Positions 13,201-59,064 of a DNA stretch of 64,000 nt are shown here, one piece after another. The DNA is from Camelus ferus (taxonomy: Eukaryota). A program made the translations under genes and the position numbers. Each line of letters opens with the position of its first letter. Positions within the stretch are counted from its first letter, which is position 1. The notes under the pieces are model-generated. The model saw nothing but the letters and a program-made list of their open reading frames with translations, searched no databases and was not told where the DNA came from. The DNA lies in contig NC_045696.1 in NCBI RefSeq assembly GCF_009834535.1, positions 12,030,001 to 12,094,000 of the forward strand. The letters run 5' to 3'.

Positions 13201-15554
13201 AACAGCTGGCCACTTGTGCATCCGATAGGAAAGTGCATACGTTCATGCTGGGAAACTGCCAATGCAATGGAAACTGGTGAGTGCTCTAAAAATCTGGCTT
13301 GGGAGGATTTGTCCAGAGAGAGCAGGGTTTCAGAGCATCTTCTAGCCCATGAATGTTGTTTATAATCGGAAGCCTCTTCAGTGGAGTGGTTCAAACCTGG
13401 GGAGTTTATTTTGAGCTGTTTTCAGGAAATCTCTGGCCGGATCATGCGCCATGTTGGGAGTTATTCCTCTGTCTAGTGAGGATCTTACCATTTCCCTTGC
13501 TCTCCTCTGACTTTTGGTGTGAGTTTCAGTATTTGGTTAAATATACTAGGACTGGTCACATGCTAAGACGTCTAACTAGATAAGATGGAACATACTTTGA
13601 AGACTGCTGGGTTCTTGGGGGGCTCTTCCCTGGGGTTGGTCATCTGGGTTTCTTGCTGCTGCAAGAGTGGGGTGGTTCACAGGGGCTCTGAGTGTGGGGC
13701 AAATCAGATTTCTCAGGTGTGATGTGTCCTTGAGGTGGAGGTGGGCAGGAGGAGGAGCCCTTCGGAAAGATGCACCAGGAATGTTTGAATCCTAGTGATG
13801 CTGTCTTTCTTCTGAGCTGTTGGAAACCCCATCACAATGGTATGCACCCTGGCATTTGTGAAGGATGGGCAGTGAGGATGCAGCCTCAGAGCGGGCTTTC
13901 AGTGTGTGAGCCTAGAGCCTCTGCGTCAGTGTATCTGGCTTTGGTTTGTTCTAGAGATTCTGAGACCTGTAAACTTGTATTTCTCCTGTGGCACTTAGGC
14001 ATCTGGATAAGAAAGCCCTGCTGTGGATGACTCTTTCCTGCTCTAAAGATGGGGGTGGCTGGTGTAGAGAACATGGAGTCCCTATTGACCACTCGGGGGT
14101 TGAGTGATGACCTCTGGCTGGGTGGACATCATTTCCCAGGATGCTGAAGCGCAGGTTCCTGAGTATCTGGGACATCCCAAGCTTCATGACCAAATAGGGG
14201 CTGGGTCTGGGCAGCCGGGATCTGTTTCCCAACAGGCTGGGTCACGTGTCAGTGTTGGGTGCTGTGCATCCCTGAGCCTGCTCGACCACTTGTGGAGACG
14301 AGGCAGAGCCAGCTTGGGTCACAGATGGGGAGCATTCCCCAATGGTTACGCTGGGTTGTGTGCTCCAGAAGCATGCTGGCTCAGCTGGGGCCAGCGGGCC
14401 TGGAACCTGGAGGAGTCACTTCTTTGCTCAGTTTAGTGGCCGTCCCAGAGTTGAACACACACAGCCTGGGCCATCGTGAGGTTGTGACGTCATTTGGCAT
14501 GAACAGATGTTCAGGTCCGACAAAGAGGTGAGTGTCTATTGAGGCCTTAACCCTTAGGTTCAGGAGGGACGTCAGGGCATTCTGTAAAGGGGGTCATGCT
14601 CTGTGGGGATGGATTGGACAGTTCAGAGACATGCCTTCCGGTCTCTGCCTCTGCTTCTCTCATCTTCTTTCATGTGCTCCTCCCCCTTGCCACTGCTTTT
14701 GAGTGTGAGCTCTTTGCCAGGAAAGTCAAGGCAAAGAGATGAACAATCATTCAGCGTTGACTGAGTTGACTGTGTAGGCGTTGACTACCGAGACGGGTCT
14801 GATCGGGCGCTGCATGCCGCTGAGCCTTCACGTTAAGAGTGGAGAAGGTGGCGGGAAGCTCGGGTTCCAACCTCCGGTTTGCCACCCACCAGGCTTGGGA
14901 CTTGCTGGGGCCTCAGCAGCCCCAGGCATTAACCAAGGGGATGGCTGTGTAAGGTTCCTTCCGGTTCTAGAGTGCCTGGAGTCCATTCCCTCCTTCTTTG
15001 TTCTGAAGTCTTTCTCTTGTGAACTCAGGAGGCTCCCCATGTAGCTTATCTGCCCCTGTCTTACAGGGAAGCAGCTTGCCTTTCTTCATTTTGGAGGCGA
15101 GTTTGTAGCTGGTTTTGTCACTTCTTCCAGAGAAAGACTGAGATGTGAAAATGAATCCAGATGTTGGGGAAATTCACACAGACTTCTCATCTCCCGCTAC
15201 CCGTGGTTACTGAATAATCAGTCATGGCCAGATTTAGGTAAATGTCCCTACCAAGGAGAAGCGTGGGTTGATGACGACGGTCTCTTGTTTGTACCAAGGA
15301 TTTTTACTTACTGGATCTGGGTCCTCGATGACCATCTATGTCAGGTTAACAGGCAGAACAGCTGGTAGCAAGGTGGCGGCATCAGTCGTCGTCAGTCACA
15401 GGGTCTATGTCTGAGCCGCATCTGTGGTTTCTTTGATTCCCTTAAGTCCCTCTAAATCCCAGGGGTCTAAACTCCATTGTAAAGGCAGTTGATTCTGAGA
15501 AATTTGCTTAACCATTTCCTGCTACTGTCTTCCTCCTTACTTCCCACTTGTTCT

Positions 15555-15622
15555 TCCTTCCTTCCTTCCTTCCTTCCTTCCTTCCTTCCTTCCTTTCTTC
15601 CTTTCTTCCTTTCTTCCTTTCT
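15555..15622. repeat. (CCTT)n / (CCTTTCTT)n pyrimidine repeat
   Basis: Read directly. Confidence 0.9.
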
Positions 15623-15659
15623 CTAATATACTTTTAATTTTAGAACAGCTTTAGAGCAC

Positions 15660-15696
15660 CCTTCAATAGCTCAGCTGGTAGAGTACAGGGCTGTAG
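15660..15696 (+). pseudogene. tRNA-Tyr(GTA) 5'-half retropseudogene (tailless), flanked by a 16-bp TSD
   Basis: ccttcaatagctcagctggtagagtacagggctgtag matches nt 1-37 of the recalled vertebrate tRNA-Tyr (CCTTCGATAGCTCAGCTGGTAGAGCGGAGGACTGTAG) at 32/37. Direct repeat ttagaacagctttaga at 15640-15655 and 15703-15718. Confidence 0.88.
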
Positions 15697-15874
15697 AGGT
15701 GATTAGAACAGCTTTAGAAGAACATAAATGTTGCAAAGATAGCAGAGAAAGTTCCCGTATGTCTGGCACCCAGTTAACCTCGAGCACCCGGCTGAGGTAG
15801 TATTTGCCAGGTTTCTCCCCTACCAAGCTACTCTTTTTCTAACTCTTTGTGCAGTGTACTCTTTGTGGAGTTTT

Positions 15875-16290
15875 TTTTTTTAAGGTGTACAATGTGATGA
15901 ATTAGTATGTATATTTTGTGAACTGTTTACCACAGTCTAGTTAATTAACACATTCGTTATTCACACAATTACCTTTTTCTTTCTTTCTTTCTTTCTTTCT
16001 TTTTTTTTTTTTTTTTTTGGCGATGAGAACACTTACAATCTACTTTCCTAGCAAATTTCAAGTGTACAATACAGTGTAATTAACTAGAGTCATCATGCTG
16101 TATGTCAGGTCCCCAGAACTTACTCATCTGTAACTGGAAATTTGTACACTTTGACCAACGTCTGTCTCCCTGTTTCCCCCAAGCCACCAGCGTCTGACAA
16201 CCACCATTCTGCTCTCTGGCTCTGTGACTTTGACATTCTTACATTCCACAGAGAAGTGAAATCATACAGCGTTTGTCTTTCTGTCTCCTT
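15875..16290 (-). mobile_element. L1 (L1MA/MB-like) 3' end fragment
   Basis: aaggtgtacaatgtgatg...ctagcaaatttcaagtgtacaatacag...ccccagaacttactcatc. Confidence 0.75.
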
Positions 16291-41302: not shown

Positions 41303-41430
41303 TTTTTGTTTGTTTGTTTTTGTGGTAGTGGGGTACTTAGGTTTTTATTTTTACAGGAGGTACCAGGGATTGAACCCAGGGCCTTGGATATGCTAAGTAT
41401 GCACTCTACCACTTGAATTATACCCTCCCC
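41303..41430 (-). mobile_element. tRNA-derived camelid-type SINE
   Basis: gggattgaacccagggcc...ctctaccacttgaattataccctcccc. Flanked by aggaaactttttatta and aggaagcatttttatta (degenerate TSD). Confidence 0.85.
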
Positions 41431-45502: not shown

Positions 45503-47883
45503 GTGGGTTCCAGGGTGGACGAGAAAGCAGATGTAGTTGCCTCCGTGGACACCTCACTTTGGGATGGACGTGCGTGGGTGTGTGTGGTCCCTTGATTGAC
45601 ACTGAGTATGATTTCACATCAACTAGCTGACACAAAGAATTGAGTTATGTTAGATGCTTTTACTAGCTCACGAATGCCCATAACATTGAACTCTGCTGTT
45701 AGTCTCCCACCAAGCTCCAGCCTCTCACCTGCATCCTTTTCAAACCCTGGTTAATTATAGATGCACTGAAAGTGCACATCTTCCTCAGTCTTCAGAGAAA
45801 AAGTAGCGCTTGTGGATGAAGCCAGGTGGGCACCTGACCAGTCTTCTAAGCTGCCCCTGGAGCTGGATCAAAGGCAGCCTTCCGGGATATCTGATTGTTT
45901 CTTGGCCCTTGACTTTTGGGGGTTGACATCAAATAGGCAGTTCTTCTCCCTGCCTGTGTGAGGAACCCGGAATCGGACAGCACTCACTCCCTGCCATGAC
46001 TCTCTGCTACTCAGGTCCCAGGGCTTCAGGGGATCTCAGTGCATCCTGAATGGCATCACCTAGGATGCAGCATCATTGGTCCTCTGATAACCAAATGCTC
46101 CGGCCTCATTACCTGGACTTCTTTATTAGCTGGGGCCACTTTCCTCCTGGAGTCACTTCTGGGAAACTCTCTTTCCACTGTCATTGTCATCCTTCTTCCT
46201 CGGCTTTGAAAAACAGGTGGGTCCGGAACTGCTTCAGATATTAGGGACTGAAAGAAAATGGATATTTGTCTTTCAGGAGGAAGAGAATGTCCAATCCCTG
46301 GGCTGCAGTGGCTGGAAAATGAGGTGTTGAGCATTTTGAGGTCATGACTAGGGTTGCCAGTTTGACCTGTTCACTCTGAGCCTTAAGCAAAGTGAGAAGC
46401 AGTCCATTGACTGATTCAATAACAAGATGTCCCGTTGTTTGTTCTGACCCATTCCAGCCATTTGTGTCCTTAAGAACTGGCATTTAAAAGGGAAATGAAT
46501 CCTGAAGGCTGATGTACTAAGTTCTTAGCTGACCCCCAAACTCATTATTTAAACCCTGTCTGGACCCCTAATGGAATGTGCAGGAGACCCAGTGAGCAGA
46601 TGGAAAGGGGGCCCGAGCCTGCGCAGTCATGTTTGTCCTGTGGCCTCTGGTGGCAGTAGAGCGACGTGTTGCCACCTGGGGTTTTGCTTCCATATAAATC
46701 TGAAGGAGAAATTGTTTAGAGGAAAGTCAGTATTTCATCAGAAAAATCACACGAGAGACTAGATGTCTCTTGATTAAACCTGCCAAAGGAGGACATTAAC
46801 CATCAGCGTTTCTCCCCTTCTTCTGGGAGGTGGTGGTGTCATTTGTGTGCCTCCTCTGTCCCTGCAGATGACTCAGATCATGGCTATATATGCATGTCAG
46901 GACTTCACAGTTGGCAACTCAGGTTGAATTTCTCTTCTATCAGAAGCTTTAGTTCAGCCGTGGGGTTCTGCTTTATGGGTGCAGGTTATGTTATGGTCCA
47001 TTGCTGCTGAAATTACATGATGGTCCATTGCTGCTGAAATATATGACCGAACTTAAATGAATCCAAGAGAACGTTTTAACTAATTTCTTTAAATCAAAGG
47101 ACCATATAATGTCTTATAAGCAACACTTGTTATTCTCTGTTATAGTAAGAGTTTAAAAAAAAAACTTATTTAGCTATACGTATACCAATAGAAATTTACT
47201 GTTAATTCAGTACATACAATAAACATACAATAGAGATTGTATGTTTCTATATATCTTGATGCGAAGGCTTTTTCTTAGTTTGTGTATATTATCCTGACAG
47301 TATATGCTTGGTTTAGAGACAATATATAAAATTTCTCATGTCTACATGTTTAGGTTTTCACCACCTAGTGGCATTGGTAACCTGCTGTGATTTTAACCAT
47401 CTTTAAGTTTGCAGGACTCATTAAATTTCAAGGGATAGACAAGTTAAAAAGCTTTTCCGTGGTTTTGTGATACAATAATTACACATGTATGTTCTCAGGT
47501 TCTGAGGATTAAAAAGTAAACTAATTATTATTGATAATTAGCTGATTAGGTGTATGATGCCACAACAGAAATTCTTCATTGTGAATGAATCTAGTTCATT
47601 GCTTTTGCAAGTTTATTTTGTTTCAATTTAGATAAATTATCCAGATTGAAAAGCCAACTTTAAAAAAAAAATTATCCAAGATGTGGGAAGTGATTTAGAT
47701 AGCGAAAATGTTTTTCATGGTCTGCTACTATAAATTGTTTTACCTGCTTTAGAATTTGACGTAAGATTATCTCAAACGTTCATAATGTTTTTTAATAGCC
47801 TGTTTGTTTTCCATCCCCCTTCCCATGCTTCATTTGCCCTTTTGCCTAGATTTCTTTTTAAGATGATACTTTTGTATGTGCAG

Positions 47884-58926: not shown

Positions 58927-59064
58927 GGGATGAGGGCATAGCTCAGTGGTAGAGCACATGCTTAGCATGCACGAGGTCCTGGATTCAATACCCAGTACCT
59001 CCATTAAAATTCAAAACAAAACAAAACAAAACGCCTAGCTACTTCTCCCTCCCAAAAAAGAAAA
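58927..59064 (+). mobile_element. tRNA-derived camelid-type SINE (first of a tandem pair)
   Basis: gggatgagggcatagctcagtggtagagcacatgcttagcatgcacgaggtcctggattcaatacccagtacctcc, then an (AAAAC)n tail. Confidence 0.88.

Follow-up and report, generated by a model that had tools for sequence, protein, structure and literature searches.

A probable tailless LINE-1-type retropseudogene of a tRNA-Tyr primary transcript, with a degenerate tRNA-Tyr locus as its likely donor

The window (the whole 64,000-nucleotide stretch of DNA that was analysed) carries on its plus strand, between positions 15640 and 15718, a piece of tRNA-Tyr(GTA) sequence that is enclosed by a direct repeat and lodged in an old, high-copy interspersed repeat. 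This host element occupies about 15620-15840 on the plus strand (the limits are approximate), and a (TTCC)n/(TTTC)n microsatellite (15545-15625, plus strand) lies just upstream of it, outside the insertion. The 5′ copy of the direct repeat, TTAGAACAGCTTTAGA (15640-15655, top-strand nick context ttaatt/TTAGAAC), is followed by the four bases of a pre-tRNA 5′ leader, gcac (15656-15659), to which the terminal A of the repeat could also be counted (agcac). Next come nt 1-37 of tRNA-Tyr(GTA) (15660-15696), which make up the whole of exon 1 and include the A box as well as the anticodon GTA (positions 34-36), then six bases past G37, aggtga (15697-15702), and finally the 3′ copy of TTAGAACAGCTTTAGA (15703-15718), whose first four bases, TTAG, are those of tRNA-Tyr nt 42-45. 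The two copies are identical at 16/16 positions with a start-to-start spacing of 63, and the insert between them measures 47 nt (15656-15702). Its 3′ end reads ...GTAGAGGTGA, with aggtga abutting the second copy without an A-run. Past 15702 the sequence is that of the host repeat, and the 3′ half of the tRNA and the B box are absent. The first-pass annotation, which was made from the letters alone, had described exactly this build, every position of which was found as given, and its statement that poly-A, 3′ half and B box are missing is borne out by the sequence after aggtga.

As expected for half a molecule, ARAGORN made no tRNA call at the insertion site and an Rfam cmscan of 15500-15900 (E ≤ 10) returned no tRNA, its one hit being a chance lncRNA match (E 6.3). 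The complete cloverleaf, 3′ exon, B box and terminator of a functional tRNA-Tyr(GTA) gene are absent from the site. Elsewhere in the window ARAGORN called tRNA-Leu(tag)-like and tRNA-Ala(agc)-like sequences at 41354-41428 (minus strand) and 58931-59004 (plus strand), and these are probably the heads of tRNA-derived SINEs, since tRNA-Ala(agc)-like calls were also made in the unrelated loci L005 and L007.

The direct repeat was examined against both the window and the other copies of the host element. Besides the pair described here, the 64-kb window contains just one other non-periodic perfect direct repeat that is 16 nt or longer and has its copies no more than 100 nt apart; 50 first-order Markov simulations contained none. 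The other one (46993-47045, copies starting at 46993 and 47020) is perfect over at least 21 nt (ATGGTCCATTGCTGCTGAAAT...) with a spacing of 27 nt and looks like a small tandem duplication. The host repeat, which may be an L1M 3′UTR, as the annotation has it, gave 1639 first-look candidates, of which 40 were scored at 77-86% identity. Thirty of its paralogues were fetched; eight were unscorable, and in all 22 scorable ones, i.e., those in which both the motif and a downstream anchor were located, the 16-mer motif is present once, 26-27 nt ahead of GTTGCAAAGATAG, while three additional motif matches with four mismatches sit at unrelated offsets. That the host repeat should carry the motif only once had been expected, and because it does, the 16-mer pair is a target-site duplication (TSD). 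The second copy in the window (15703-15718) sits at the same offset as in the paralogues, so that the first copy together with the 47-nt insert is the added material. A likeness by eye of the 16-mer to the tRNA D-arm (nt 8-24) and to the 3′ trailers of tRNA-Tyr genes on contig C6 was dropped, as the 16-mer is part of the host repeat's own sequence.

The identity of the insert was established by searching its own 2.09-Gb genome, where the window occupies C1:12,030,001-12,094,000, with BLAST, in which it matched the intron-containing tRNA-Tyr genes at 86-91% identity (E 4.8e-8 to 3.1e-7), the similarity ending at 15697; in the reverse search, with a tRNA-Tyr gene as the query, the insert was recovered at E 2.7e-7. 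The genome census combined BLAST with a real gene and two exhaustive pattern searches (reversed-pattern controls 0), and found 13 full-length intron-containing tRNA-Tyr loci, complete in both exons, whose introns measure 15-19 nt. Contig C6 holds seven of them, C20 three, C29 two and C15 one. Exon 1 has the commonest sequence in eight, T at nt 16 in four and a variant form in the last. The count rests on alignment and not on a tRNA caller, since ARAGORN reported tRNA-Tyr in only two of four full-length loci tried (L002 and L019; none in L006 and L013). In all 13 genes the sequence 3′ of the intron continues with ATCCTTAGG, the very continuation of the mature tRNA that the annotation gives, and GCAC stands at -4..-1 in five of the 13 as well as in a degenerate locus, L029, which bears out the earlier reading of gcac as a possible pre-tRNA leader. 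Against the commonest gene exon 1, the insert has 5/37 mismatches, three of them CpG-type transitions, the same count of CpG decay as previously noted. These mismatches (two of them non-CpG) and the still perfect TSD suggest that the insertion is old, yet younger than the host repeat. Among public sequencing data, 20 runs (seven studies, two organisms) hold 0.88-0.95 of 83 sampled words of 15300-16100, and the runs with a word share of 0.95 very probably carry the insert, as about 12 of the words should overlap it.

Two further observations concern the genes themselves. L011 and L012 (C6:40,499,085-40,505,190) are tRNA-Tyr genes 6 kb apart on opposite strands and are identical over the compared 220 nt including flanks, as in a recent inverted duplication or an assembly duplicate. 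The C6 cluster contains tRNA-Thr(tgt) plus tRNA-Tyr as a repeated gene unit (L019 at C6:30.317 Mb and L029 at C6:30.268 Mb), and the L019 unit also has a tRNA-Pro(tgg).

The window copy has many siblings. A pattern search of the whole genome at up to three mismatches gave 35 matches (reversed control 0), consisting of the 13 genes, L029 and 21 partial copies, and a second pattern search added L045, which raises the retrocopies to 22, the one in the window included. In every one of the 22, two or more nucleotides separate the TSD from tRNA position +1, and in 11 of them the bases at -4..-1 equal those of an extant gene, the chance of which is about 9/256 per copy; these leaders are gcac in seven (the window copy and six others) and gcgc, gctc, tccc and gatt in one each. 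L025 (leader ..gatt, T16, intron agggagctttc) matches the gene L018 (gatt, T16, AGTGGAGGTTTC...), the leader of L034, gttccc, matches L019, and that of L031, gctc, matches L016. The TSDs are perfect at 11-17 nt in eight copies, have one mismatch in six and two mismatches at 13-20 nt in three, and are short or doubtful in the remaining five. The 3′ end points cluster in the anticodon loop and the intron: eight copies stop at nt 34, with a target TA or CAG that overlaps anticodon positions 35-37, one stops at G37, one a single base past it, and 12, that of the window included, have 4-25 nt past G37, with nearly whole introns of the L009/L010 type in L033 and L024. The nick contexts are mostly pyrimidine/TAAA (e.g., aatt/TAAAAG in L142), a preference that fits the published consensus for tailless insertions, TT/WAAAAWW.

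Some of the siblings record other things. L027 (C19:37.01 Mb) and L139 (C5:56.63 Mb) have a common post-G37 sequence, ACTGGACAT[T/G]TGT, that occurs in 0/13 extant genes and is the fossil of a donor gene that was lost, changed or left out of the assembly. In L141 (C8:22.93 Mb) and L023 (C4:19.23 Mb), both leader-bearing, G37 is directly followed by ATC. The 3′ exon starts with these bases, as does, in the case of L023, the intron of the likely donor L010, whereas for L141 there is no T16-type gene with an intron starting ATC. A spliced but 5′-unprocessed template is one possibility here, chance microhomology another. For the 5′ pre-tRF-Tyr of the mouse, a spliced, 5′-unprocessed source has been suggested (PMC12239594).

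The origin of aggtga is the key to the donor. The annotation had taken these six bases for the possible beginning of an intron. The same hexamer stands directly after G37 in L026 (C21; TSD TTAGAGTCAGCTG, leader gcgc) and in L045 (C10; older and more diverged, TSD about GGGTTTCAG), and as these are two independent retrocopies with other flanks and other TSDs, the bases must have been templated. Thus far the earlier reading holds, but no intact gene has such an intron (0/13). In the whole genome, at up to three mismatches, AGGTGA after exon 1 was found in the window copy, L026 and L045 only, with L029 at three mismatches. Metagenome scans for other animals' tRNA-Tyr genes whose intron starts AGGTGA were equally negative: the first gave no matches, and the second (exon 1 + AG) gave 57, none of them a mammal-type tRNA-Tyr and none with an AGGTGA intron, 55 of which start CCGA... 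while the two that start CCTTCGATAG differ at nt 12 (CCCAG for CTCAG). Of the Tyr-GTA gene that was to be looked for, with GCAC upstream and an intron starting AGGTGA, the first part thus exists in five genes and in L029 and the second in none of the 13, L029 being the nearest.

L029 is a degenerate tRNA-Tyr locus on the minus strand of contig C6 (C6:30,267,9xx) in a cluster of tRNA-Thr and tRNA-Tyr genes. Its sequence runs from ccgcac through exon 1, AGGTAATTTGC and TGCTGGTTCGATCCCAGTTCGAAGTA into a trailer that contains a T-run; AGGTAATTT stands after G37, and what would have followed of the intron is missing, as are tRNA nt 38-41. In a MAFFT alignment it follows the cluster genes through both tRNA ends and weakly upstream, with an internal gap of 16 columns. 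A tRNA-Thr(tgt) lies about 0.7 kb upstream, as at the gene locus L019, and the main C6 cluster is 25 kb away. To judge from its sequence and surroundings, L029 is a genomic paralogue and not a retrocopy. Among the 14 loci (13 genes and L029) it is the only one with AGGT after G37, and MAFFT places the aggtga hexamer against its intron start, to which the six bases of the window copy would be homologous; with 14 loci, agreement with AGGTGA at 5/6 positions has a chance expectation of roughly 6%.

Two other retrocopies, L135 (C1:50.56 Mb, perfect TSD TAAGAACTGATGGCAG) and L136 (C14), share the private exon-1 changes of L029 (..GGGAACTGCAG). The bases after G37 are AGGTAA in L029 and in L135 (AGGTAAT in the latter) and GGATAA in L136. 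Because L135 and L136 have these private changes together with their own TSDs, the L029 lineage has been transcribed and retroposed. The window copy has 0/3 of the private exon-1 substitutions of L029, and L026 and L045 are without them as well, so that the window copy either predates the substitutions or stems from a lost paralogue; within the L029 lineage, L135 and L136 would be younger than the window copy, L026 and L045. On balance, the degenerate paralogue L029 is the most likely donor lineage of the window copy, and an unprocessed transcript of this crippled tRNA-Tyr locus is a more likely template than a normal spliceable pre-tRNA. The hope that the donor locus might be identifiable has accordingly yielded a best candidate, with the leader gcac and AGGT after G37. 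Of the proposed leader- and intron-containing pre-tRNA, the leader and the post-G37 bases stand, but a deletion-bearing locus is the likelier source than a normal precursor.

The place at which reverse transcription was primed may be reflected in the target sequence. A search for TTAG-like microhomology between intron and target had been proposed earlier, and indeed the TSDs of the window copy and of L026 both begin TTAGA, with a mutual local alignment score of 7 (p ~0.01 against random 16-mers of the window). When the TSDs were aligned, anchored at their start, to nt 42-61 of canonical tRNA-Tyr (TTAGGTCGCTGG...), p was 3.5e-4 for L026, whose target matches tRNA nt 42-53 immediately past AGGTGA, 0.018 for the window copy, 0.19 for L135 and 1 for both L136 and L045, values that need a several-fold discount because the hypothesis of nt 42 following AGGUGA was set after the data and after two other comparisons; 12 TSDs from other donors, which served as controls, each gave p ≥ 0.44. 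The five lineage TSDs matched the present-day sequence of L029 no better than chance (p 0.26-0.98), and L029 now reads AGGTAATTTGC, not AGGTGATTAGG. Since the TSD starts of the window copy and L026 match the bases that come next in the inferred RNA, the donor RNA would have run further 3′, and the start of the target thus favours internal priming on a longer RNA over the capture of a pre-cut fragment. The insert ends 6 nt 3′ of the anticodon loop, and in the fold of the present-day L029 transcript AGGUAAUU lies in a hairpin loop, a fold that is no better than those of shuffles (z -1.25). Compared with TT/WAAAAWW, the nick in the window, TT/TTAGAACA, agrees in the TT and the W, in two of the four A positions and in one of the two W positions.

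Taken together, we consider it very likely that 15656-15702 is a tailless retropseudogene of LINE-1 type, internally primed on a leader-bearing primary transcript of tRNA-Tyr whose donor was likely L029. As its template we envisage a primary transcript made by RNA polymerase III from a tRNA-Tyr(GTA) locus, with the 5′ leader gcac still on. The donor RNA presumably read exon 1, AGGUGA, UUAGGUCGCUGG..., i.e., the deletion now seen in L029 would already have been there, and with most of the intron and nt 38-41 gone it could have formed no anticodon stem and undergone no splicing. The L1 endonuclease would nick the bottom strand of the old interspersed repeat at top-strand TT/TTAGAA, and the freed 3′ end (...TCTAA-3′) would anneal to UUAG(G), at an internal site of the RNA that lies a little 3′ of the anticodon loop. 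Reverse transcription to the 5′ end of the RNA would then copy aggtga, exon 1 (from nt 37 to nt 1) and the leader, and a second-strand nick 16 nt away would yield the TSD. The involvement of the L1 endonuclease and reverse transcriptase is suggested by the length of the TSD and by the nick context. The copy received neither poly-A nor 3′ exon nor B box and is therefore a dead fragment. The interpretation of the first-pass annotation is thereby supported in substance, with a refinement as to the donor.

The explanation that comes closest, which is the very version put forward in the annotation, differs in the template only: by the same mechanism, a normal, spliceable pre-tRNA-Tyr with an intron starting AGGTGATTAGA... 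would have been primed within that intron, its gene having since been lost, mutated or left unassembled. There is something to be said for it, as the match of L025 with L018 and the near-whole introns of L033 show that normal precursors have clearly been retroposed (so too L024), the intron start of L027 and L139, found in 0/13 genes, implies that donor genes have indeed been lost or changed, and the window copy is without the private substitutions of L029. It must, however, account for an AGGTGA intron start in 0/13 extant genes and for the genome-wide restriction (at up to three mismatches) of AGGTGA after exon 1 to the window copy and its siblings L026 and L045, L029 being three mismatches away, and the target of L026, which equals tRNA nt 42-53 right past AGGTGA (p=3.5e-4), would be unexpected if a long intron intervened. 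We regard this as an unlikely but serious competitor. A template that was already cut is improbable: a fragment consisting of leader and 5′ exon and ending a few bases into the intron (...GUAGAGGUGA) would have been captured at its 3′ end. Leader-bearing 5′ pre-tRF-Tyr do occur in mouse cells, with the ends -TAGA, -TGTA and -GTAG (PMC12239594), and about 10 of the 22 copies end at nt 34-38, which would suit such ends. The window copy, however, goes 6 nt past G37, where no fragment end is reported, its TSD start and that of L026 match the following bases, which implies that the RNA went further, and for 5S and U2 Noll et al. (2015, PMC5322556) found truncated-RNA templates unsupported.

An event at the DNA level, whether a double-strand break that took up filler DNA or an insertion that accompanied a local duplication, would dispense with reverse transcription altogether, and the lack of a poly-A tail and the shortness of the insert would be compatible with it. 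We give it very little credence. The first base of the insert corresponds to -4 of a tRNA gene, where Pol III could plausibly start, and its end falls in the region of the anticodon loop and intron, as do the ends of 21 other copies, each of which has a TSD of its own; moreover, a 16-nt TSD with TT before the nick is an L1-type signature. Least probable of all, to the point of being negligible, is that the insert comes from a tRNA-derived SINE or resembles tRNA-Tyr by chance. The genome does abound in tRNA-like SINE heads, and ARAGORN calls Ala(agc)- and Leu(tag)-like sequences, but the 35 genome-wide matches at up to three mismatches (reversed control 0) are all tRNA-Tyr genes or partial copies, and the BLAST E values in a 2-Gb genome are 1e-7 to 1e-8.

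By itself, the window copy matters little, being a dead 47-nt fragment in a repeat and of a class described in 2004. Its value is modest: it illustrates cleanly how tailless copies can be assigned to single donor genes by means of their leader, their post-G37 bases and their siblings, and the start of the target hints at an RNA reaching further 3′, which bears on the question of internal priming versus fragment templates. A more far-reaching proposal, which we put forward tentatively and consider rather doubtful, is that the crippled L029, without anticodon stem and unspliceable, was the source of 5/22 copies (p ~0.02 for this many from one of 14 loci, by a rough, post hoc Poisson estimate), and that L1, as the leader kept by 22/22 copies would also suggest, captures nascent or processing-stalled nuclear pre-tRNAs instead of mature tRNA, with a preference for processing-defective transcripts. 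If that were true, tailless copies would constitute a fossil record of the tRNA loci transcribed in the germline of the ancestors and of their processing. Given a comparison of orthologous sites, presence or absence of the insertion might also be used as a marker in the phylogeny of camelids or cetartiodactyls. A literature search on retropseudogenes of intron-containing pre-tRNA found no relevant report.

Three known systems invite comparison. Leader-exon fragments from the 5′ part of pre-tRNA-Tyr were reportedly described by Hanada in 2013. The 5′ pre-tRF-Tyr of PMC12239594 comprise the same part of the molecule as the window copy, the leader and 5′ exon of tRNA-Tyr, but they are RNA ending in -TGTA, -GTAG or -TAGA, whereas the window element is genomic DNA, reaches 6 nt further and bears signs of priming on a longer RNA. 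Like the tRNA-derived SINEs, the window copy is tRNA-like in its 5′ part, contains an A box, lies between TSDs and was presumably mobilised by a LINE; unlike them, it has no B box, body or tail and has not been amplified, the copies numbering about 22, and no shared body or tail of SINE type was seen past the pre-tRNA part among the 35 genome-wide matches at up to three mismatches.

The closest relatives are the tailless retropseudogenes of Schmitz, Churakov, Zischler and Brosius (2004, Genome Res 14:1911) and Noll et al. (2015, PMC5322556), which are also treated in a review (PMC3747384). According to Noll et al., they are truncated in a loop or at another unpaired place of the source RNA, the last 2-18 nt of the annealed RNA have their complement in the target, the target consensus is TT/WAAAAWW, and unprocessed tRNAs are explicitly listed among their sources, so that the annotation was right in invoking a known mammalian class. 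Like these, the window copy is derived from a small RNA, truncated at its 3′ end, devoid of oligo(A) and flanked by a TSD (16/16). It resides in a camelid-type genome instead of the human one, and it probably stems from a crippled paralogue in a gene cluster, not from a working gene. In nothing essential does it differ from the class, and the window insertion is very likely a member of the tailless retropseudogenes.
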